NCBI GenBank assembly: GCA_964613185.1
Contig: CAZTIP010000002.1
Coordinates: 15,757-79,756, forward strand
Direction: 5' to 3'
Length of the DNA: 64,000 nt
DNA from: Candidatus Woesearchaeota archaeon
Lineage (GTDB): Archaea; Nanobdellota; Nanobdellia; Pacearchaeales; GW2011-AR1
Shown here piece after piece: positions 48,857 through 63,438 of the stretch. The translations under genes and the position numbers were made by a program. The notes below the pieces were generated by a model. That model ran no database searches. It worked only from the letters and a program-made list of their open reading frames with translations, and was not told where the DNA came from. The stretch's first letter is position 1; every line of letters starts with the position of its first letter.

Positions 48857-49939
48857 ATGAAATGGTTTTTTATTTTGGGAAGAAATCCGAAGTTATCTCG
48901 TGAAGAAATTCTCGCTTATCTTCTTGCGAGGTCAAGGAAATATGAAGAGATTTTTTTTGATGAGAATCTTTTAGTGATTGAAACCTCTGAAGGAGAAAGA
49001 TTTAATATTCAGGAATTTGGAGGGGTTTTGAAACTTGGTGAAATTAGTTTTGAAGGCGAGGAATCTGAATTTAAGAATTTTGTTTTAAATAATGAATTAG
49101 TTCCTTCAGATAAATTTACTTATGCTGTTTTTGGAAATCTTGAATTGGAAATCTTGAAAGAGAAGTTTAAGAAAGAAAAGAAAAAAGCTGTTTTGAAACA
49201 TGGGAGAAATCAAATGGAGTTAGAAGGTGGGAAAAAAATAAATGTTCCCATAAATTCTGATTTTTCTATTTTTCTTTATGGTTTTGGTGGAAAGATTTAT
49301 TTTGGTTTGGCGAGTCAGAATTACAATTCTTTAGAAATTCGTGAAAGAGATATGGAAAAACCTATTCGTCGGGAAAGTTTAGCGATTTCCCCTCGTCTTG
49401 GGAAAATTTTAGTTAATCTTTCTGGAACTAAACCAGGAGATTTGCTTTTAGACCCTTTTTGTGGTGTTGGAGGAATTTTACAAGAAGCATTATTAAAGAA
49501 AATTAAAGTTTATGGAATTGATAAAGATGCTGATGCGATTAAAGGTGCAAAAGAAAATTTGAATTGGATTAAGAAAAAATATGGATTTAAAGAATCGTTT
49601 GTTTTGAAAGTTGGAGATTCCCGAAAGGTTGATGATTTGCAATTTGGTGCTATTGCTACTGAAACTCCTCTTGGAAAAGTTCTTAAGAAAAAACCAGATA
49701 ATAATGAAGCTAAACAAATAATTCAAAATTTTGAAGCTTTTATTATACCGATTTTGAATCGTTTAAAAAATTCTAAAAGGTATTCTGCGAAGATTGCAAT
49801 TACTTTTCCTGTGATTAGGAATTTTCATGTTGATGTTAAAAAAATTGCTAAAAAGGTTGGGATGAAAATTGTTTTTGAACCTATTAAGGAATCTCGGAAG
49901 GACCAGTTTATTAGTCGTGATGTTGTTGTTTTTATTTAG
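48857..49939 (+). CDS. Putative RNA methyltransferase (THUMP-like N-terminus plus a class I SAM-MTase; UPF0020/Trm14-like)
   Basis: LLDPFCGVGGILQEA is SAM-binding motif I, typical of UPF0020 tRNA m2G methyltransferases. Confidence 0.5.
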   Translation: MKWFFILGRNPKLSREEILAYLLARSRKYEEIFFDENLLVIETSEGERFNIQEFGGVLKLGEISFEGEESEFKNFVLNNELVPSDKFTYAVFGNLELEILKEKFKKEKKKAVLKHGRNQMELEGGKKINVPINSDFSIFLYGFGGKIYFGLASQNYNSLEIRERDMEKPIRRESLAISPRLGKILVNLSGTKPGDLLLDPFCGVGGILQEALLKKIKVYGIDKDADAIKGAKENLNWIKKKYGFKESFVLKVGDSRKVDDLQFGAIATETPLGKVLKKKPDNNEAKQIIQNFEAFIIPILNRLKNSKRYSAKIAITFPVIRNFHVDVKKIAKKVGMKIVFEPIKESRKDQFISRDVVVFI

Positions 49940-52497: not shown

Positions 52498-53376
52498 ATG
52501 AGTTTAGATGATGTGTTAAATAATTTGAGTGTGAAAGGTGAAAATGGTAGCATTGCTAATCCAGATTACAATTCTGTGAATTTATTAGAAGCCCAAAAAG
52601 ATTTGGCAAAATTAAGTTCTCTCGATATGAATACCATTGAAGGAATATCCTCTTATCAAATTTTAACAGGGGAAGATGTTTCGGCATATTCTGCTGATAT
52701 GATTGATTATAGAAAACAAAGTAGGATTTCTGGAGGTCAAAATGATATAGCTGTTTATATCCGAGAACATTTTGATAATTTAATTGACGAAATGGATGAA
52801 GATTCCCAAACAAAAATTGCTTATACTTTCTGTCCTAATCAGGATTCTCACGATAATCCTAATGATTATAATTTTACAAGAAATATAGTTTATGAGAGTA
52901 ATGAAATTTTAAAATCCATTAATGAAAATCCTGAAAATTTTCTTAATGAACATTTGAAAAATGAATCTTCTTTGATTGGAAGATATATTTCAAATTCTCC
53001 TGAAGAATTTCTTAAAATTTCTCAATCCGATGCTCAAAGGACTGCATTATTATCTATTAAGAAATATGGCGCAAGTGATTTCTTGAAAGAGAGTCATAGT
53101 ATCCTTGAAAATCAAAAAAATACTTATGCTTCTGAAGAAAGAAGAATAAGTGAAGAAATGAATACTAAGTTGAATGATAAGGCTGTTGAACTTGGAAGAG
53201 TTTTGAATGGACAAGAAAGGGCTGATTTAATTTCTTCAGATATTGAAAATCTTTCTGCATTAAGTGAAAGATATTCTGGAGCTCAACAACTTGGACAATT
53301 TACCAGGGAAGTTTTCCAATATGCCTTAGCAAATATTGAAAGAAATCTTGAAGAAAACTCTGAAGAAAATAATTAA
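52498..53376 (+). CDS. Hypothetical protein
   Basis: 292 aa with no recognised motif. A TATA-like tttataaac lies about 25 nt upstream. Confidence 0.3.
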   Translation: MSLDDVLNNLSVKGENGSIANPDYNSVNLLEAQKDLAKLSSLDMNTIEGISSYQILTGEDVSAYSADMIDYRKQSRISGGQNDIAVYIREHFDNLIDEMDEDSQTKIAYTFCPNQDSHDNPNDYNFTRNIVYESNEILKSINENPENFLNEHLKNESSLIGRYISNSPEEFLKISQSDAQRTALLSIKKYGASDFLKESHSILENQKNTYASEERRISEEMNTKLNDKAVELGRVLNGQERADLISSDIENLSALSERYSGAQQLGQFTREVFQYALANIERNLEENSEENN

Positions 53377-53377
53377 A

Positions 53378-54250
53378 TTATTTATTTGTTTTTTCTTCTA
53401 TTAATTCATCAACGAGTTTAGCCATTTTTCCTAAAAATTCATCTGCTTTACTAAACCATTCATCTAAATTTTTCCCAGTAACTTTGGTTATTTCTCCATG
53501 AGTTATATCTTTTGAAACTTTATGAATCTCGTCATAATATTTTACATATTTTTTATTTAATCGTCCTTTTTTTACAAAACTATTTGTTAAAACTTGTGAA
53601 ATTTCTTCAGGAGATGCAGGGGTTATTTTTGCAGTTATTAGTGCTGCGTGTGCTGAATCTACCATTGTCCAATATAATCCGTCAACTACAGCTAACATTG
53701 ATTGTCTTGCCCTTGTAAGATGTTGTGGAGCCCTTTGTAATAGTGTATAGATTGATTCTGGTGTCGATTTTATCTTTCCATTTTTTAATAATATTTTTAG
53801 TGGAGTGAAAAATCCTCCAAAGTCAACAACTGCGTCTCCATATCTTAAAATATTAATAACTACTGGATCTCCCCTCATCATATCACTCCACCAAGTTGTT
53901 AATTTTACGGTATTTATGTGCAAGGGTTTTATGTAAGGATTTTTTCTTATTAATTTTCCTAATTCTTCACGATACCATGCTATCAATTCTTGATTCCAAT
54001 TTATTGAAACGTCGTCAATTATAATTATAATATCTATATCTGATTCACTCGTTGCAGTTTGTTTGGTTGAAGAACCGAAAAGAATTACTGATTTAATCAT
54101 TTGATCAAATTCTTGATAAACTTTTGTTCCAAAATCTGTTGCAATTTCCCTTTCATTTGAAAATTTCATTGTTAATGGTTTTGAAATAATTTTATCCTTA
54201 GAATTTTTTTTATTTACAGAACTCTTACTTTTTTTTATTATTTTCACCAT
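53378..54250 (-). CDS. Minimal nucleotidyltransferase domain protein with a C-terminal helical (HEPN/KNTase-C-like) domain
   Basis: ILFGSSTKQTATSESDIDIIIIIDD is the NTase motif. Its C-terminal half is homologous to the middle of 44524..46392 (LLKNGKIKSTPESI versus LLRMGKIKPSPEAI). Confidence 0.55.
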   Translation of the reverse strand: MVKIIKKSKSSVNKKNSKDKIISKPLTMKFSNEREIATDFGTKVYQEFDQMIKSVILFGSSTKQTATSESDIDIIIIIDDVSINWNQELIAWYREELGKLIRKNPYIKPLHINTVKLTTWWSDMMRGDPVVINILRYGDAVVDFGGFFTPLKILLKNGKIKSTPESIYTLLQRAPQHLTRARQSMLAVVDGLYWTMVDSAHAALITAKITPASPEEISQVLTNSFVKKGRLNKKYVKYYDEIHKVSKDITHGEITKVTGKNLDEWFSKADEFLGKMAKLVDELIEEKTNK

Positions 54251-54287
54251 CTTGTTAATATTTGGGAATTATATTTTATAAAGGTTT

Positions 54288-56186
54288 TTAAGCCATTGGA
54301 GCTCCACCAAATCTAGATTGGTTTCCTGCCATTTGCCCGCCCAATTCCATCGGCATGGTTGTAAATCCTGAACCATACATGCTGTGATGTAATTCAGGAT
54401 TTGTTGTTCCGTAACCCCCAAAATAATTTCCTTGCATTGAAATTGATTCATTCCAATTTTGTCCTTCTCCAATCCCATAAGTTCCACTTCCAAAGGCGGT
54501 TAATGACAATGAGTGAGGAGATTTTTTAAAATGTTCTACGAATCCTCCTGCTTCTACAATCATTTTCATTTCCTTGATTTTTCCATGTTTTTCTAATTGT
54601 TCCATTACTTTTTTTATTGGAACATTCCCCATTCCAGGTGCTAAATGTGAATCTGAGAATCCGAAGTTATCTGTTACGTGAACATGTTTTACATAAGGCG
54701 CTATTTTTTTTGTTTGCTCTACAACATATTCTTCTCCAAAACCTTTACTCCTCGCCATATTTATATGCCCCATATCCCATGTAGCTCCAATTCTATCTGA
54801 AGAAATTTTTTTTGCCTCTTTTTCATTTACACCTTTTTTTTCAATAAGATATTTGCTAAATTCTTTTCTTGAATCTTCAATTAATTTTTTATGATCTTCT
54901 GCCCTTGAAAATCCTAATCCCTCAAAAATATTTTCTATTGCAATTGTTGGAGCCGTTTTTCCAAATTCGTCGTATGAACGTTTTGCTAAATTGCTAAATG
55001 TTTTTGTTGCTTCTTTCATTGCGAAATCAGATGCATTTACATAAATTTCTGGAGCTTTCTCCCGAGTTACATAATTTAATTCATTAATTGCATCTCCTAA
55101 AATCTTTTTTTTGTGTAATGGTTTTAAAATAAGTTGCCCTTTCCAGGGAGTTTTCTCATCTTTTAATTCTAAATTTTTCAAATTTTTGGAATATTTTTCT
55201 GAAAGTTCTTTTAATCTTTCTCTTTGGTTTTTATCTCCAAATTTATAAGCTTTATGAAACATTGAATCAAAATTTAATCTAACGTTATCTAGAAAGATAT
55301 CTGCATTGTGCATTTTTTTGTATCCTTCGATTTGTTGACTTGAAAGATCTGGCAATTCTTCTCCATTTTTTCTATCATAAATTTTTCCTCCTTCTCTGAT
55401 TTCTGCATTTTCCCAATCGATTTCTTTTCCTATTTCATCTTTTCTAAAATTTAGTGGCGAGTTTCCAATTATTTCATCTGCATGTTTTGAAAATGTGGCT
55501 AATTCGGTCATACTATTCTCCCATTCACTTGCATTAATAGATTCTAACTGTTCATTTAATCCAAATTTTTTCCCTTCTTCTTGAAGGCTTTCTGGCCGAT
55601 GGGCATAATATTTTTCTTTTACTTCTAAAGGTTTTAATGATTGATTTGTTTCTAAATTTATTACTGGAAGACTTGTAAGTTTATCTTTAGTTTTATCTTT
55701 TTCATCCGGAACATATCCTTTGCTATATCCTCCTGCATTTCCTGTATGAAATACTACTGGGAGATTATCTTTTGGATCTAAAATATGGGCTTTTTCTATT
55801 GCATCAAACATTCTCCTTTCGTTACTCGCCCTTTCATCTTCTCCTGCCCATCCTCCTTGCCCAAATCCTGCTGCGTCCATTAAAGGTCCATGTAAACTTG
55901 GTTTCACTCCAGTTAATTTCATTAAAGCTCTTATCTCGTGAAAATGTTGTTTTGGAAGTGCCTGATCTGCATCCTTCATTGCTGGACCAAGCATAGTTAC
56001 TTCGAAAACTTTTGTTCCTTGTTTGATTGCATTTATAGTTTCCCCTAATTGATTTCCTGTAAATGGGGAACCTGGAAAACCAATCTGAGATCCTGCTAAT
56101 CTGTTAAATCCAGTGTAGTTGCTGAATTCAGAATTGAGAAAACTGTCTCCCCCCTGATAAATAGATTCACTACTATAATCAACCAT
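54288..56186 (-). CDS. Xylose-isomerase-like TIM-barrel (sugar-phosphate isomerase/epimerase fold) protein with a ~200-aa charged insertion
   Basis: N-terminal half: EVTMLGP...HGP...VFHTG. C-terminal half: IAIENIFEG...WDMGHIN...HVHVTDNFG...HLAPGMGNVP. These are the usual hallmarks of the fold. Confidence 0.4.
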   Translation of the reverse strand: MVDYSSESIYQGGDSFLNSEFSNYTGFNRLAGSQIGFPGSPFTGNQLGETINAIKQGTKVFEVTMLGPAMKDADQALPKQHFHEIRALMKLTGVKPSLHGPLMDAAGFGQGGWAGEDERASNERRMFDAIEKAHILDPKDNLPVVFHTGNAGGYSKGYVPDEKDKTKDKLTSLPVINLETNQSLKPLEVKEKYYAHRPESLQEEGKKFGLNEQLESINASEWENSMTELATFSKHADEIIGNSPLNFRKDEIGKEIDWENAEIREGGKIYDRKNGEELPDLSSQQIEGYKKMHNADIFLDNVRLNFDSMFHKAYKFGDKNQRERLKELSEKYSKNLKNLELKDEKTPWKGQLILKPLHKKKILGDAINELNYVTREKAPEIYVNASDFAMKEATKTFSNLAKRSYDEFGKTAPTIAIENIFEGLGFSRAEDHKKLIEDSRKEFSKYLIEKKGVNEKEAKKISSDRIGATWDMGHINMARSKGFGEEYVVEQTKKIAPYVKHVHVTDNFGFSDSHLAPGMGNVPIKKVMEQLEKHGKIKEMKMIVEAGGFVEHFKKSPHSLSLTAFGSGTYGIGEGQNWNESISMQGNYFGGYGTTNPELHHSMYGSGFTTMPMELGGQMAGNQSRFGGAPMA

Positions 56187-56227
56187 CTTATAAAATATAA
56201 ATTAAATGATTATTTAAATTTAATGAG

Positions 56228-56806
56228 TTAACCAAATGTCGAACTTCCCGTGTACCTTTTATCATCTTCTTGTATTAATGCTGATTTTCCAAAACTTGAC
56301 ATTGATTTTTTTTCGAGATTGTTTTTTTCTTCAAAACTTTTTAATCTTCCTTCATTTCCATTTTCATTCCCTATGTTTCCTGCGTATGCTGGATCTTCTG
56401 AATTTTGAGAATACTGGATTCCTGAATTTGTAGAGTATGCATCACTTCCTGAATTTTTTCCCGAATATAAATCTCCATTTCTAGAAGTTTCATAATTTAC
56501 TTCTCGATTGTTTGTTTTATTTTCTTCGGATGTGTAAGTTGAAGAAATTGGATTATATTGATTTTCTTGAATATTATTTGAGATATTCTCGTTTTCATAA
56601 ATAGATTCTTCTAGATTTTTACTCTCCGATTCTTCAATTTCTTCTTCATTTTCATTAAATTCTTCTTTGGATTGAAGTTCTTCTTGAAAATTTTTTATTT
56701 CCTTAGGACCTTCCTCATTTTCATCTAAAACTTTTTCAAGATTTTTTTCCCCATCTTCTTCAATTTCTTCATCTAAATTTTCTTCAGATTTTTTATCTTT
56801 ATCCAT
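56228..56806 (-). CDS. Hypothetical acidic E/N-rich low-complexity protein
   Basis: 192 aa with strong compositional bias. Confidence 0.3.
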   Translation of the reverse strand: MDKDKKSEENLDEEIEEDGEKNLEKVLDENEEGPKEIKNFQEELQSKEEFNENEEEIEESESKNLEESIYENENISNNIQENQYNPISSTYTSEENKTNNREVNYETSRNGDLYSGKNSGSDAYSTNSGIQYSQNSEDPAYAGNIGNENGNEGRLKSFEEKNNLEKKSMSSFGKSALIQEDDKRYTGSSTFG

Positions 56807-56847
56807 TTAACTTTTAAGAAGATTAGATTTAAATATTTTCTGAATAA

Positions 56848-58335
56848 TTAATTCCTTTCTTGCCCCTTGAAGATGTCTTTAAATTTGGTTCCTGGTTCTT
56901 TTGTTTTTCCCAAATCTTGATTATCAAATGCGGTAGGTGATGAGGCCATTCCATGAGATTTTTTGTAGATATCATAAACAAGATAAATTCCTGAAGCCGC
57001 ATTCTCTGCACTCTCTGCCCTTACTACTTTTTCAATAAAATTATCGGGTTTAATTTCCAAAATATTTTTTATTTCTTCAGCTTTCTTTTTATCTCTTCCT
57101 TCAGATTTTTTAAATAATCCTAAAATTGCAGTGAATGGATTTATATCTTCTGTTTTTGTTTTTTTTGTTAATTCCTTTTTATCTTCTTCATTGTTTAGAA
57201 ATCTATCTAAATCTTCTTTTAAATCTTTTAATGCTTCTTCTGCGACATTTCCCTGATAATTCATGCTTTCCGCAACATCCTCTTTTTTTAATTCTTCTTC
57301 GATTAATTTTAATTCTTCTTCGTTTAAAGAGTATGCATCGAAAGTCATATCAATTCTTCCTCCCATTGCGAAACCTTGATCCCCTTTTTGTGTAACTCTT
57401 TGTGAAACGTGTCCCCGGTATTTTAATGTGATGAGCATACATGAATTGTATTTTCTTTTTAGATTGTAATCTCCGAATTTTTCTGGAACTTTTGCACCTT
57501 TTTTTGCTAAAAGAGTTAATTCAAACATAGATGTACTGAATGCATTTACTAGTGCCGAATCTCCTTCAAAACCTTTTTGTCTTAATTCTTCTGCAGATCT
57601 TAAATAAGGTTTCATCCATGCAGAATAAAGTTTTATTGTTTCAACCTGAGATTTTAAATAATTTTTTTCTATACTCATCCTTTTTCTTAATTCTTTTTCT
57701 GAATATTCCTTCCATTTTTTGAATTCGTTTATTCTTGGAATTAAAATTCGCATTACTTGTTCGTTTATTATTCCACCTCCATTATCGTCATTCATTTTTT
57801 TTAAAGATTCTCTTGAATCTGCCATCATAAAAGCTTCCCTAATTGTTGTAAATCCTAATTCTGTTGCCATTTGATGAATTGAACCTCTCCCCCTCTTTAA
57901 ATCTACATTATCTAACCAAATTTGTTTTAATGCCAAATTTCCATCTGAATTTTTTTGTTTATCTTCAGATTTTGCATCATTGTAAGATTCCAATCTTATT
58001 TCAAATTCTTTTAAATCATAAATTAAATTTAAAATTGATTTTATTATTTGATTTATGCCTCCTAAAATCTTCATCCCTTCTTCTTGCATTTTTGTTGCTC
58101 GTTGCCCCATTTCTGCAAAATGTCCGGAACCTGGGCTTGACATAAAATTATCAGTTATCTTGGTTGTTTTCCATCCCATATCTTGAATGAAATCTAAAAT
58201 CCAATAATAAATAGGTTCTAATTGTGCTTGTTGGGAATCAAAAGTCATTTTGTAAGATGCTGTTGGATCTCCCCAAATTCCGTTGGTTTTACTTTTTGAT
58301 AAGACTTCCTTAATCACCTTTTTTATTTCACTCAT
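56848..58335 (-). CDS. Hypothetical protein, 495 aa
   Basis: Long ORF with normal codon usage and no recognisable motif. Confidence 0.35.
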   Translation of the reverse strand: MSEIKKVIKEVLSKSKTNGIWGDPTASYKMTFDSQQAQLEPIYYWILDFIQDMGWKTTKITDNFMSSPGSGHFAEMGQRATKMQEEGMKILGGINQIIKSILNLIYDLKEFEIRLESYNDAKSEDKQKNSDGNLALKQIWLDNVDLKRGRGSIHQMATELGFTTIREAFMMADSRESLKKMNDDNGGGIINEQVMRILIPRINEFKKWKEYSEKELRKRMSIEKNYLKSQVETIKLYSAWMKPYLRSAEELRQKGFEGDSALVNAFSTSMFELTLLAKKGAKVPEKFGDYNLKRKYNSCMLITLKYRGHVSQRVTQKGDQGFAMGGRIDMTFDAYSLNEEELKLIEEELKKEDVAESMNYQGNVAEEALKDLKEDLDRFLNNEEDKKELTKKTKTEDINPFTAILGLFKKSEGRDKKKAEEIKNILEIKPDNFIEKVVRAESAENAASGIYLVYDIYKKSHGMASSPTAFDNQDLGKTKEPGTKFKDIFKGQERN

Positions 58336-58425
58336 ATTTTATATTGGGATTGAGAATATATAAACGTTTTTACGTTTTAGTTTTTTCTTGCAAATATTTA
58401 AATAAAGTGCCTCCTTATTTAATTT

Positions 58426-58827
58426 ATGATTTTCAAAAAGAAAGTTGGAATGGTAGATGTTAGGGAATTGCAAAAACGAGGTGTTGTCCGGATTCCTCGA
58501 AACGATATAGTTATTCCAAGAAGTTCTGATGGATTTGTTAATTTGAATCCAGATTCTAAAACTTCTTCTTCTGTTGTCGAGAGTAATTTATCTGGAAAAG
58601 ATTCTACTTGTGCAACTGATTTTTTAGGATTTACAGATTCTTCTAATCTTTCTTCCGATGATTCTTTTTCATCTTCTTCTGAAGGTTATGATAAAAGGGA
58701 AGTTGATTCTAAAATTTCAGATTTAGATAATAAGATTTACAAATTGGAACAAAGAATTGAACTTCTTGAAAGAAAATTAGATGTTAATCAACCTAACGAT
58801 AATAATGTTGGAGTTATGGGTTGGTAG
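58426..58827 (+). CDS. Hypothetical protein with a Ser-rich middle and a coiled-coil C-terminus
   Basis: 133 aa. Confidence 0.3.
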   Translation: MIFKKKVGMVDVRELQKRGVVRIPRNDIVIPRSSDGFVNLNPDSKTSSSVVESNLSGKDSTCATDFLGFTDSSNLSSDDSFSSSSEGYDKREVDSKISDLDNKIYKLEQRIELLERKLDVNQPNDNNVGVMGW

Positions 58828-60578: not shown

Positions 60579-61175
60579 CTAAATCTTTCCAACTAAATCA
60601 AGTCCTGGTTTTAAGGTTTCTTTTCCAGGGGCCCAATTTACAGGACAAACTTGTTCTCCGTTTTCGTTTACGAATTTTGCTGCTTGTAACTTTCTGATTA
60701 ATTCCTCAATACTCCTTCCTACAGAATTATCATGAATTTCAACAGTTCTTAAAATTCCTTCAGGATCAATTATGAAAGTTCCTCTTAATGAAAGTCCTTC
60801 TCCCTGAATGTAAGTTCCATAATCTTTGGAAATTTTTCCGGTAGGATCTGCAATCATTGGAAATTTGATTTGTTTTATTGATTCAGAATTATCGTGCCAT
60901 GCCTTATGAACAAATGCCGTATCTGTTGAAATGCTTAAAACTTCTGCACCCAATTCTTTAATTTCTTGATATTTCTTTGCAAGTTCTTCTAATTCTGTTG
61001 GACAAATAAATGTGAAATCTGCAGGGTAAAAGAATAAAATTACCCATTTCCCCCGATAATCTCTTAAGGATATTTTTTTTATTTCTTCTTCATGAAATGC
61101 TTCTGTTGTGAAATTAGGTGCATGTTTCCCTGGAAAACAAACCTCTATATTGTTACAACATCCGTGACCTTCCAT
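60579..61175 (-). CDS. Peroxiredoxin (2-Cys Prx, AhpC/TSA family)
   Basis: Active-site motif FTFICPTEL. Length is 198 aa. Confidence 0.9.
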   Translation of the reverse strand: MEGHGCCNNIEVCFPGKHAPNFTTEAFHEEEIKKISLRDYRGKWVILFFYPADFTFICPTELEELAKKYQEIKELGAEVLSISTDTAFVHKAWHDNSESIKQIKFPMIADPTGKISKDYGTYIQGEGLSLRGTFIIDPEGILRTVEIHDNSVGRSIEELIRKLQAAKFVNENGEQVCPVNWAPGKETLKPGLDLVGKI

Positions 61176-61220
61176 TTTATTATTTTATATTAAAGAGTTT
61201 ATAAATTTTGGTAATCGGCG

Positions 61221-61592
61221 TTACCCTTCAAAGATATTTCCAGTCTTTTTGAACCTCTCAATCATTTCTTCGTTTTGTTTTAATCCCTTCCTTTTTAGGA
61301 CTAATGCTTCCCTTGCTTTTTGAATTGCATCACAAATTTTGATATTTATCGGACATTTTTGTTCGCATGCCTTACACATAGTGCATTCATAAATTACTTT
61401 ATCTAGAATTTTATCGGATAAAAGTATTGCATGTCCTCTTGGCGAAACTCTTTCTTCCATTAACACTTTGAAAGTAGGGCATAAAGATTTGCATAAACCA
61501 CAGCTAGTACATTTTTCAAATATTTCGCAAGCTTCTTCAATTAAATTATTCGCTTCAATTAATTCCTGTTCTGTTGGCTTTTCATTACTCAT
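61221..61592 (-). CDS. 2x[4Fe-4S] ferredoxin-like subunit (GlcF N-terminal-like)
   Basis: Cluster motifs CTSCGLCKSLCP and CTMCKACEQKCP. Confidence 0.7.
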   Translation of the reverse strand: MSNEKPTEQELIEANNLIEEACEIFEKCTSCGLCKSLCPTFKVLMEERVSPRGHAILLSDKILDKVIYECTMCKACEQKCPINIKICDAIQKAREALVLKRKGLKQNEEMIERFKKTGNIFEG

Positions 61593-62710
61593 ATTAATTT
61601 TCCTTGATTAAATTTATTCAGAGGATCTGTTCTTTTTTTGATATTTCTTAAAATTTTTTGATCGTTAATTTCCACAAATTCTTTTTTTAATATTCCTACT
61701 CCATATTCTTTAGAAATTTGACCCCCTAATCTTTTGATTAATTTTACCATTTCGGGAATTAATTTTTCCTGTGAATTATTGAAACAAGGATTTAAATTTC
61801 CTGTAGAAATTTCTCCAAATGAATGAATATTTCTTTCCTCTAACCACCTAATTAATATTGGAATCTTATCGATTAATATTTTTGGATCTTCAATTCTTAG
61901 ATATTCTTCTTTTACCATTATTGAATAAATCTTATCAATTAATTCTAAAATATTTTGATAATCTTCTCCTTTTAAATTTCCTGAATCATCTTCATATTCA
62001 ATAATTAAATTATATCCTTCTTCAAGATTTAATTTTTTACTAAGCCATTTATCCAAAAATTTTGTCATAGAAATATTTGAATTTCTTTTTAGATTCTTAA
62101 CTATCGAAATTATTTCTTCAAAACTTTCCACAGTTATTATTGACGCGGTTCTTTCTTTTTTTCTTGTTAATTTTAAACAAGCCTTAACAATTACTCCTGT
62201 AATTCCTTCCATTCCAGAATAATCACTTATCTCAGTTACCCCTTTTTTTTCAAGCTCTCCTTTACAGTTTATGATTTCAATCCAATTTATCCAATTTTCA
62301 GTTTTACCATATTTTAAACTTCTATTTCCTGTTGCATTTGTCGCAATCATTCCTCCAATTGTTGCAATCTCATTACTTGAAGGAATTACTGGAAATTCTA
62401 AATTGTAATCTTGTAAATAATTTTGTAAATCTTTTAAGATTACTCCCGCATCTACTTCGATAGTTTTTCTTTCTTTTTCTAATTTCCCTATTTGATTTAA
62501 TTTAGATAAATCGAGAACTATATCTAAACCACTTTGGGGAATTGCACCTCCTACGAATCCACTTCCTCCACCTCTAGGAACTATCCTTTTAGAATTTTTT
62601 ATTATGCCTTTTATTTCCTGAATAGATTTCGGATTTTTGATATCTTTCGCATTCCCTTTTAATCTTGAAGCATCCGCTTCATAAATTTTTTTTAAATTTT
62701 TTAAATTCAT
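61589..62710 (-). CDS. FAD-linked oxidase (GlcD/D-lactate dehydrogenase-like)
   Basis: FAD_binding_4-type motif RIVPRGGGSGFVGGAIP. It overlaps both neighbouring genes by 4 nt. Confidence 0.8.
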   Translation of the reverse strand: MNLKNLKKIYEADASRLKGNAKDIKNPKSIQEIKGIIKNSKRIVPRGGGSGFVGGAIPQSGLDIVLDLSKLNQIGKLEKERKTIEVDAGVILKDLQNYLQDYNLEFPVIPSSNEIATIGGMIATNATGNRSLKYGKTENWINWIEIINCKGELEKKGVTEISDYSGMEGITGVIVKACLKLTRKKERTASIITVESFEEIISIVKNLKRNSNISMTKFLDKWLSKKLNLEEGYNLIIEYEDDSGNLKGEDYQNILELIDKIYSIMVKEEYLRIEDPKILIDKIPILIRWLEERNIHSFGEISTGNLNPCFNNSQEKLIPEMVKLIKRLGGQISKEYGVGILKKEFVEINDQKILRNIKKRTDPLNKFNQGKLI

Positions 62711-63438
62711 ATTTTTAATCCTCTTAATTTTCCTAAAACAAATGTTGAAAACTCAGTACTTTTTTCGGTGACTAATTTTAAATTTGAATGTGATAATTCA
62801 CAGGGGGAAATAACCCTCGAAATATCTTTTGGAATTGTAGAAATTTTCTTTTGAGCCATTTTTTTTGAGAGTTCTTTAAAATTTTCTCGCATTCCTGCCC
62901 CTGCACAACAACAAAGAGAATTTTCCCTGTTTAATTTCATTTCTAAAATTTCTCCTCCAAGAATTCTTATTATCTCTCTTGGTTCCTCATAAATCTTTGA
63001 ATATCTCCCTAACTTACATGAATCATGATAAGTTACAATTTCTTTTTCCCCTTTTTTTATTCTTATTTTCTTTAACCCGTTTAATATTGAAATTGTTGCA
63101 TGTTCTACTTCAATATCCCATTCCCTAACAAATTCTGGATAAATATTTTTCAACATATAATAGGTTGATGGAGAATTTGTAATAATTTTTTTTATTGAAT
63201 TTTTTTTGAATTTTTCAAAGTTCTGATTTGCAATTTTTCTTGCTTCGTTTTTGTATCCTGCATTTAAAATTTCGTGCCCACATGAAAAATTTTCTTCAAT
63301 AGTTATAAAATTTATTTTTAATTTCTTGAAAATTTCCTGATAGTTTTCAAATTCCCTATTTAAAAAAGTTCTTGTAAATTGGCCTGGAAAATAAAGTGTT
63401 TTTCCCCTTAAATTTTTCCCCCAGTTTAAAATGTTCAT
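62707..63438 (-). CDS. Cysteine-rich CCG-domain protein (HdrB/GlcF C-terminal-like)
   Basis: Two CCG-type motifs, one near YHDSCKLGR and one near CCCAGAG. Confidence 0.75.
   Translation of the reverse strand: MNILNWGKNLRGKTLYFPGQFTRTFLNREFENYQEIFKKLKINFITIEENFSCGHEILNAGYKNEARKIANQNFEKFKKNSIKKIITNSPSTYYMLKNIYPEFVREWDIEVEHATISILNGLKKIRIKKGEKEIVTYHDSCKLGRYSKIYEEPREIIRILGGEILEMKLNRENSLCCCAGAGMRENFKELSKKMAQKKISTIPKDISRVISPCELSHSNLKLVTEKSTEFSTFVLGKLRGLKI

Follow-up and report, generated by a model that had tools for sequence, protein, structure and literature searches.

The DNA analysed here is a 64,000-nucleotide stretch of Candidatus Woesearchaeota archaeon contig CAZTIP010000002.1 (the window), and its subject is a block of four genes that, as the comparison of related loci shows, form a vertically inherited core operon of Pacearchaeota/Woesearchaeota-type DPANN archaea and not a mobile element. 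The gene set is undescribed and functionally linked. Its first gene product, U495, appears from its homologues to found an unannotated family specific to Pacearchaeota and Woesearchaeota. Its third product, a TIM-barrel protein (TIM), carries an active-site signature that, in the alignments, is the nine-ligand set of endonuclease IV (Nfo, Endo IV) and not the four-ligand set of sugar isomerases. A sequence-only reading of the window had placed four minus-strand genes with short gaps here, and the list of open reading frames (ORFs) agrees:

56848..58335, minus strand: U495, a 495-aa soluble protein, first gene of the block
56228..56806, minus strand: X, a 192-aa acidic protein encoded between the U495 and TIM genes
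54288..56186, minus strand: TIM, a 632-aa TIM-barrel protein of the xylose-isomerase-like superfamily
53378..54250, minus strand: NTase, a 290-aa nucleotidyltransferase of the Pol-beta superfamily

We propose, tentatively, that the block encodes a housekeeping module in which a metallo-phosphoesterase and a nucleotidyltransferase sit on a coiled-coil platform and probably act on the ends or lesions of nucleic acids. TIM would be a three-metal phosphoesterase, its active site capped by the inserted domain, which would confer a new substrate specificity. NTase and TIM would share one substrate, one enzyme cleaving or cleaning a phosphodiester or phosphorylated end and the other adding a nucleotide. 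U495 would be a non-enzymatic coiled-coil platform that binds both enzymes and X through short motifs, and X may be a disordered adaptor in the module. The favoured substrate would be a nucleic acid, with DNA or RNA end or lesion processing as a lineage-specific housekeeping function. Translation and core genes are consistently found around the block. We know of no system in which these parts occur together, and TIM would be an enzyme derived from Endo IV, set in a new architecture and with new partners.

A vertically inherited core operon

U495 has more than 2057 homologues in a collection clustered at 90%, 707 representatives at 50% clustering, and relatives in the genomes of at least 581 GTDB species. 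Leaving aside its own species cluster, the 120 best homologues align over their full length at 57-67% identity. The records listed are labelled Pacearchaeota, Woesearchaeota, Nanoarchaeota, Nanoarchaeia or archaeon, with the exception of one 'bacterium' metagenome-assembled genome (MAG), and the long form of the TIM protein carries the same lineage labels. Every database name for U495 is 'hypothetical protein'. Because ORFs of 495 and 632 aa are long for a 30%-GC genome and have hundreds to thousands of full-length homologues, we take them to be real genes. The one record labelled as bacterial is locus L074 (JAUUWR010000027.1, deposited as 'MAG: bacterium'), which carries U495 (42% identity) and TIM; it is probably a mis-binned or mislabelled DPANN contig.

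The genes of the block stay together. Co-localisation was counted in 60 related loci with at least 4.5 kb of sequence downstream of U495. In 50 of them, a TIM gene lies on the same strand no more than 5 kb after U495; the gap has a median of 796 bp and almost always contains one or two acidic ORFs of about 150-240 aa. Downstream of TIM, NTase is present within 4.5 kb in 45/47 loci and is adjacent in 32 of the 47. The order U495-X-TIM also occurs in all six loci of a distant, Woesearchaeota-labelled U495 subfamily (about 25% identical), and there the genes are separated by 2 bp or overlap by 4 bp. Full-length NTase orthologues (36-40% identity) are adjacent in two of these Woesearchaeota loci and about 2 kb off in a third; a fourth has an NTase-domain gene about 4 kb away. 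The sequence-only reading had named genes that are never co-localised elsewhere as the outcome that would undo it, and this is clearly not the case (50/60 and 6/6 loci); across genomes, the block is found together in at least dozens of species from two deep lineages.

Four unrelated core genes could in principle remain neighbours without sharing a function. Synteny in Pacearchaeota does extend further, as gltX, ppsA and a cluster of peroxiredoxin (Prx) and FAD-oxidase genes are also conserved nearby, and 10 of the 60 loci have no TIM next to U495. The Woesearchaeota loci argue the other way. Their flanks (ribosomal S7/S12 and L16, an AsnC-type regulator, YhbY, a Na/H exchanger) are unrelated to those of Pacearchaeota, yet U495, X and TIM remain tightly adjacent, and no surveyed locus carries NTase without TIM. 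We consider shared synteny alone a very improbable explanation.

The operon has the marks of vertical descent. Across loci, U495 identity in percent rises and falls with the identities of TIM (r 0.90), NTase (0.88), glutamyl-tRNA synthetase (GluRS; 0.85) and PpsA (0.92). The mean identity of U495 is 53.9%, against 54.6% for GluRS, so that by this measure U495 is as conserved as a tRNA synthetase. The GC content of the block is about 30%, with no compositional break. Searches of phages and plasmids with tblastn returned no relative of U495, IMG/VR gave no match to the U495 or TIM alignments, and PHROGs gave nothing meaningful for the block proteins; TIM had a single marginal phage match, at 12% coverage. 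We conclude that inheritance is vertical because the proteins diverge in step with GluRS, the GC content is unbroken, and phage, plasmid and IMG/VR relatives were not found. A virus, plasmid or defence origin was considered and rejected, given the empty phage, plasmid and IMG/VR searches and a PADLOC match confined to the generic NTase domain.

The most specific form of a mobile origin would be a defence or toxin-antitoxin island built around a minimal nucleotidyltransferase (MNT)-type enzyme. NTase matches generic PADLOC NTase models (PDC-S09, E 4e-11), and one Woesearchaeota locus has a separate MNT plus HEPN pair after TIM. However, U495, X and TIM have no PADLOC match, the divergence in step with GluRS and the even composition do not suit an island, and the MntA model reaches 26.9 bits against a cut-off of 60, short of a type VII (MntA/HepT) toxin-antitoxin assignment. 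We regard this reading as largely refuted and barely credible. The sequence-only reading had singled out the block as the best place in the window to look for an undescribed system. It was right that the gene set is undescribed and linked; a mobile or accessory picture of it is wrong, as the block belongs to the core vertical genome and the suggested search for virus and plasmid relatives came back empty.

The same reading had been unable to assign any of the four genes to a characterised pathway, and this is still so after family, PDB and literature searches. No paper was found on this operon, on the function of MJ1311 (the closest solved relative of TIM by sequence, below) or on its structure 3WQO, and a Pacearchaeota metaproteome paper gave no relevant detail on the block. 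'Module 98' of Castelle et al. 2021 (PMC8204110) comprises 51 families common to Pacearchaeota and Woesearchaeota, mostly of unknown function, and U495 shows exactly this distribution. The main text of that paper does not describe the U495 family or the operon.

All four proteins are soluble, as none has a membrane-spanning hydrophobic segment. The intergenic gaps are 37, 41 and 41 bp. Pfam matches on homologous loci identify the flanks as a ppsA-like phosphoenolpyruvate-utilising enzyme and a gltX-like class-I glutamyl/glutaminyl-tRNA synthetase, bearing out the housekeeping surroundings (ppsA upstream, gltX downstream) described from the sequence. No structured RNA or tRNA adjoining the block was found, the four tRNAs of the window lying elsewhere. 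One possible control element precedes the operon:

58357..58364, minus strand: TATA-like box TTTATATA, 22-29 nt upstream of the U495 ATG, read from the sequence

This box is possibly the promoter of a leaderless operon transcript, on weak evidence, being a weak signal in a genome of 70% A+T for which the scanning tool covers no archaeal promoters.

Individual loci vary around this plan. In one Pacearchaeota genome (locus L001), a 381-aa protein is encoded on the opposite strand between U495 and X (9752-10897, minus strand); it is Cys/Gly-rich, has an N-terminal hydrophobic segment and looks like a pilin or surface protein. NTase is missing after TIM at this locus. A YhbY/CRS1-type RNA-binding gene precedes the block on the same strand in two Woesearchaeota loci (L089, 6687-6959; L090, 6704-6952). 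Within a few kb after the block, a small DOT1-like methyltransferase gene (L088, L090) and TYW3 (L089, L090) are found. The Woesearchaeota neighbourhood may thus have an RNA flavour, or this may be local synteny only.

The active site of the TIM-barrel protein

By sequence, TIM matches PF01261 (AP_endonuc_2, the Pfam family of Endo IV; E 1.7e-13) over its C-terminal half only. The sequence-only reading had seen two halves of an interrupted barrel, quoting the motifs EVTMLGP, VFHTG, IAIENIFEG, HVHVTDNFG and HLAPGMGN; all five are present, and the AlphaFold2 (AF2) model (predicted template modelling score, pTM, 0.76) joins the halves into one complete eight-stranded barrel, which Foldseek aligns as a whole to ketose 3-epimerases across the insertion. 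The protein can be divided as follows:

56097..56186, minus strand: N-terminal tail, aa 1-30, predicted disordered, with a conserved aromatic pair [FY]Y.G
55746..56096, minus strand: N-terminal half of the barrel, aa 31-147, β1-β4; H99 ends β3 and H147 ends β4
54948..55745, minus strand: insertion, aa 148-413, beta hairpins and a helical bundle in the AF2 model
54513..54947, minus strand: C-terminal half of the barrel, aa 414-558, β5-β8, with E418, D471, H474, H503, D512, H514 and E545
54291..54512, minus strand: C-terminal tail, aa 559-632, predicted disordered (predicted local distance difference test, pLDDT, <50) yet conserved

Our comparison with endonuclease IV used an alignment of E. coli nfo with eight diverse homologues (28-65% identity, bacteria plus haloarchaea), as hhalign of the TIM alignment against a single Nfo sequence was uninformative. 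Endonuclease IV is a three-zinc apurinic/apyrimidinic (AP) endonuclease and 3'-repair diesterase. The residues invariant in the nine Nfo sequences include, in E. coli numbering, H69, H109, E145, D179, H182, H216, D229, H231 and E261, which we take to be the nine ligands of the three-zinc site. Hhalign pairs these nine with H99, H147, E418, D471, H474, H503, D512, H514 and E545 of TIM, and in a joint MAFFT alignment the pattern H-H-E-D-H-H-D-H-E is found in 9/9 TIM and 9/9 Nfo sequences. E. coli YcjR and UlaE each match four of the nine ligand columns in the same alignment; they lack the β3 and β4 histidines (one aligned His in UlaE excepted) and the D-x-H pair. Seven of the nine ligands are kept in 56/56 TIM orthologues, down to 18% identity, while H474 is kept in 55 and D512 and H514 in 44 of the 56. 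The ligand residues sit at the C-terminal ends of β3-β8 in the AF2 model. TIM thus resembles Endo IV in its superfamily fold and in nine ligands at the β3-β8 strand ends, including D-x-H...G-x-G-N after β7. Foldseek matches of TIM to Endo IV are local (3.1-3.5 Å root-mean-square deviation, 16-22% identity). TIM differs from Endo IV in its 225-322-aa domain after β4, its long conserved disordered tails and its three operon partners.

The best PDB sequence match of TIM is MJ1311 (3wqo), with an E-value of 1e-7 for the single sequence and 1.7e-9 (2e-9) for the profile. The match runs over β6-β7 and includes WD.GH, HVH..DN and D.HL..G.GN. MJ1311 differs in having 293 aa and neither insertion nor tails; one paper (PMC2770678) lists it as the protein of Methanocaldococcus jannaschii predicted to be homologous to Endo IV. 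It is itself uncharacterised, so it offers no help with mechanism.

The databases name the TIM family 'sugar phosphate isomerase/epimerase', and a carbohydrate pathway is an alternative reading. TIM would then be a metal-dependent sugar or sugar-phosphate isomerase or epimerase, and NTase would nucleotidylate a sugar hydroxyl, in envelope or glycan synthesis or salvage. KNTase-type (kanamycin nucleotidyltransferase-type) enzymes adenylylate aminoglycoside sugar hydroxyls, and NTase has weak matches to aminoglycoside nucleotidyltransferases. The ketose 3- and sugar-phosphate epimerases (D-tagatose or D-psicose 3-epimerase, YcjR, UlaE) are the best global Foldseek matches of TIM and share its E-D-H-E core. 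However, they bind one metal and have no insertion, whereas TIM conserves four more ligand positions. We reject a sugar-isomerase active site because H99, H147, D512 and H514 are conserved beyond E-D-H-E, with YcjR and UlaE lacking them save for the one UlaE His; the 'sugar-isomerase-like' label of the sequence-only reading does not survive for the active site. The NCBIfam equivalog models of sugar enzymes also score far under their cut-offs (fructoselysine 3-epimerase best, at 24 bits vs 305; others 13-14 vs 300-353), and no glycosyltransferase or sugar-kinase neighbours are conserved at homologous loci. A carbohydrate pathway seems to us quite unlikely.

Several observations weigh against the phosphoesterase module proposed above. 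First, similarity of TIM to Nfo is marginal: hhalign gives E-values of 0.038 and 0.009 with a probability below 5%, an hmmsearch comparison with Nfo scores 2.7 bits, and Nfo as a tblastn query has no significant match in the window or the loci (best E 1.8). Second, TIM has lost three non-ligand residues that are invariant in Nfo, namely H7 and the DNA-recognition residues Y72 and N75; where Nfo has Y72 and N75, the TIM family reads HGP[LIV].DAAGF, with no equivalent Tyr or Asn, and GFPGSP replaces the Nfo GAHVS. Because the similarity is marginal and H7, Y72 and N75 are missing, these comparisons indicate that TIM is neither a canonical AP endonuclease nor an Nfo orthologue. Third, the structures that Foldseek matches best over the whole barrel are ketose 3-epimerases (2ou4, E 9.5e-4; target-normalised TM-score 0.6-0.65). 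Fourth, the nine-ligand geometry also occurs in peptide-modifying iron oxidases (DUF692/MNIO), and TglH is among the partial Foldseek matches of TIM. Fifth, TIM is absent within 5 kb of U495 in 10/60 loci, and for nine of those ten neither ORF listings nor tblastn find a TIM in the stored locus. Finally, the scaffold role suggested for U495 is inferred from an AF2 model of moderate confidence (pTM 0.49).

The fourth point suggests another possibility, that TIM is an iron-dependent oxidase which matures X as its precursor peptide with U495 as a peptide-binding partner, as in MbnB/MbnC/MbnA or TglH/TglI. The gene order of a partner, a small protein and a TIM-barrel enzyme is similar, both systems placing a multi-metal TIM barrel beside a small protein and a non-enzymatic partner, and the partial Foldseek match to TglH (8hci_B) has a probability of 0.97. 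On the other side, TIM has no DUF692 Pfam match at E<=1, and X is no short peptide at 150-240 aa, has no Cys in the window copy and lacks a class-wide conserved core. The partner U495, at 500 aa, is unrelated to those of the MNIO operons, and an O2-dependent enzyme would be unexpected as a core gene of lineages common in anoxic groundwater and sediment. We think peptide maturation highly unlikely.

The inserted domain of TIM follows immediately on H147, the ligand at the end of β4, and so lies on the catalytic side of the barrel strands; it includes a helix (aa 385-411) that leads into β5. The sequence-only reading had described a Lys/Glu-rich insertion of about 200 aa. It measures 266 aa here, and 225-322 aa in 56 orthologues (median 269). 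Its K+E content of 25% compares with 26% in the C-terminal half of the barrel, and it is predicted to be a folded domain and not a linker, with the mean pLDDT of ten-residue blocks mostly 75-96 (one block at 58). Scanned alone, the insertion has no Pfam match. A relation between the insertion and U495 was tried with hhalign and discarded.

The C-terminal tail follows the pattern G.YFGGYGT.NP..HHS.YGAGFTTMPVELGGQ...SRFGGTPMA, and in both deep lineages the protein ends in four residues of the form [TVA]P[ML][AE]. A PIP-box or HbYX reading of this C-terminus was dropped by eye, as the motif does not fit.

The nucleotidyltransferase, X and U495

The nucleotidyltransferase identity of the last gene product, already recognised in the sequence-only reading, is confirmed by matches to PF01909 (E 3.9e-8; 34 bits vs a cut-off of 21) and PF18765. 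Its catalytic motif is complete:

54032..54076, minus strand: NTase catalytic motif hG[GS]x(10)DhD, aa 59-73, with G59, S60, D71 and D73

Among 12 orthologues (34-66% identity), G59, D71 and D73 are invariant and S60 is conserved in at least 90%. The orthologues next to or near a TIM gene are 36-75% identical. A PDB profile search returned minimal NTases only (an MNT-type protein, HalB and KNTase), aligning KNTase over the N-terminal domain alone. The N-terminal tail is Lys-rich, and a C-terminal extension of about 170 aa is probably helical. NTase resembles KNTase, MntA and HalB in its G[GS]x(9-13)DxD motif and in an N-terminal domain followed by an extension of about this length, but differs in being a conserved core gene (36-75%) linked to TIM and not a resistance, toxin-antitoxin or defence gene. 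At Woesearchaeota locus L084 (12251-13212, plus strand), TIM is followed by a separate 178-aa NTase gene, extended at its N-terminus by about 95 aa, and by a gene of 142 aa, which has no Pfam match and which we read as HEPN-like from its position and size. This split pair may reflect the origin of the fused 265-290-aa NTase, or an unrelated toxin-antitoxin insertion.

Protein X was described from the sequence as acidic and E/N-rich, and its composition agrees (E 20%, N 14%, pI 4.25, no Cys). It is of low complexity and probably disordered. X has no family match in Pfam or NCBIfam, and the X proteins searched alone against Pfam give none either. An acidic ORF of about 150-240 aa, with a D+E fraction of about 0.16-0.35, occupies the X position in nearly all loci, and a related charged family does so in the Woesearchaeota loci. 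The X proteins are poorly conserved overall, and their C-terminal motifs are lineage-specific. SMLE[VI]AGF[ER]D occurs in 13/58 X ORFs and in no other of 2834 ORFs; LPF[EQD] and [LM]PWE, almost confined to X ORFs, occur in 12 more of the 58.

The motif E[VLIM][AGS]G[FQ] is common to TIM and X. Within the last 70 residues of 2834 ORF tails, it is present in 37/56 TIM, 12/58 X and one other ORF, and may be a common docking peptide or pseudo-substrate. In the window it falls in the TIM tail (54291-54512) and in X (56228-56400), and it is also seen in loci L003-L083. Because the disordered regions of X, TIM and U495 all carry conserved short motifs, these motifs suggest a peptide-mediated assembly.

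The tails also permit a quite different reading, a protein nucleotidylylation cycle. NTase would attach a nucleotide (AMP or another NMP) to a Tyr, Ser or Thr of a disordered tail of X, U495 or TIM, and the three-metal TIM would take it off again, so that the module would regulate U495 and not process nucleic acid. MntA AMPylates a partner protein. The MntA adenylyltransferase antitoxin is the best NCBIfam match of NTase, although below the family cut-off (E 3.4e-6), the top PDB profile matches are MNT-type structures, the tails are Tyr-, Ser- and Gly-rich, and the E[VLIM][AGS]G[FQ] motif, with 49 of its 50 occurrences in TIM or X, could mark a substrate and pseudo-substrate pair. Against this, no conserved acceptor residue was identified, the X motifs vary by lineage, the HEPN toxin partner is absent in the window, and we know of no TIM-barrel de-AMPylase. 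We consider such a cycle unlikely.

U495 has no known relatives outside its own family in the collections searched. It has no sequence match in Pfam, NCBIfam, PHROG, PADLOC or PDB, and 56 diverse members and their profiles give no consistent match in Pfam, NCBIfam or PDB. Longer family members with N-terminal extensions have no known domain there. The sole PDB match of U495, CAMP factor (E 0.037), was taken as chance. U495 has no transmembrane segment, and its AF2 model has a pLDDT of 71. Three parts of the protein stand out:

57973..58125, minus strand: long helix 1, aa 71-121, from the AF2 model (pLDDT 75-89)
57583..57762, minus strand: long helix 2, aa 192-251, from the AF2 model and the family alignment
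57076..57189, minus strand: disordered K/E-rich linker, aa 383-420 (pLDDT <50)

The two helices are predicted to pair as a coiled-coil hairpin inserted in a beta-sheet domain. W208, R219, E223, Y226, W240, P243 and Y244 of helix 2 are invariant. The linker contains the motif D-[IV]-N-P-F (aa 397-401), in which P400 is invariant; D397, N399 and F401, together with A403, are at least 90% conserved. The model has no Foldseek match at E<=1e-3 in PDB or BFVD, and the matches that it does have are of the coiled-coil type only.

U495 might itself be the heart of the system, as a self-assembling cytoskeletal, scaffold or compartment protein with TIM and X as clients held by their terminal peptides and the chemistry secondary. 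In other systems, cargo-loading peptides recruit clients in this way. An identity of 57-67% among the best 120 homologues is found here in a protein without an enzymatic motif, two helices of 50-60 residues are predicted, short motifs are conserved in the disordered regions of U495, X and TIM, and a small DivIVA-like coiled-coil protein is encoded divergently in most Pacearchaeota loci. However, comparison with capsid, encapsulin, ESCRT-III/PspA, SMC and intermediate-filament folds in PDB and BFVD gave nothing beyond generic coiled coils, and there is no evidence of oligomerisation. We find self-assembly doubtful as the primary function, although it would be compatible with the platform proposed above and the two are not exclusive. 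The sequence-only reading had counted cytoskeletal proteins among the outcomes that would undo it, and such a role, or one as a scaffold, is still conceivable for U495.

It is tempting to speculate further, and here we lean towards disbelief, that U495 is a new fold and family forming a lineage-specific cytoplasmic platform. Through short motifs, this platform would recruit an Endo IV-derived three-metal enzyme with a new capping domain and a dedicated nucleotidyltransferase. The result would be an essential, lineage-invented machine for nucleic-acid or protein-nucleotidyl processing, without counterpart in other archaea and possibly replacing a universal function lost in genome reduction.

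Significance and neighbouring genes

Among uncultivated archaea, Pacearchaeota and Woesearchaeota are some of the most widespread, and lineage-specific families of unknown function define much of them genetically (PMC8204110). The operon offers a tractable entry point into these lineages: four soluble proteins, one of them conserved like a tRNA synthetase and two with recognisable catalytic sites. For a protein annotated as a 'sugar phosphate isomerase', the working hypothesis becomes an Endo IV-type multi-metal phosphoesterase with a new inserted domain, a change that affects metabolic reconstructions of Pacearchaeota and Woesearchaeota genomes. If U495 does prove to be a new scaffold fold, it would be a new component for archaeal cell biology.

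Four further features of the window lie near the block. A 133-aa protein is encoded at 58426-58827 on the plus strand, divergent from U495, the two genes being neighbours in most Pacearchaeota loci. The protein begins with a conserved stretch, M.FKKK.GMVDVRELQKRGVVRIP, continues through a disordered, Ser-rich middle into a C-terminal coiled coil, DLDNKIYKLEQRIELLERKL, and ends in GW. Its match to a DivIVA-related NCBIfam model is weak (E 5e-6) and under the cut-off, and the six Woesearchaeota loci showed no copy of it. The protein may be an accessory of the block that is specific to the lineage, or its gene may only be linked to gltX.

On the other side, a 292-aa acidic Ser/Asn-rich protein is encoded at 52498-53376 on the plus strand, convergent with NTase, the two stop codons being one base apart. 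Its conservation is only weak, with identities of 23-37% in six loci, in all of which it lies between NTase and ppsA. Upstream of ppsA, 48857-49939 on the plus strand encodes a 360-aa methyltransferase (PF01170 UPF0020/RMKL-like, E 2e-15) that has no linkage to the block in other loci.

Beyond gltX, 60579-63438 on the minus strand encodes Prx, a 4Fe-4S protein, an FAD-linked oxidase and a CCG-domain protein, resembling a glycolate or lactate oxidase. The FAD-oxidase, CCG and ferredoxin genes of this cluster are syntenic in other Pacearchaeota contigs, and Prx and the ferredoxin are confirmed in the window's own contig.

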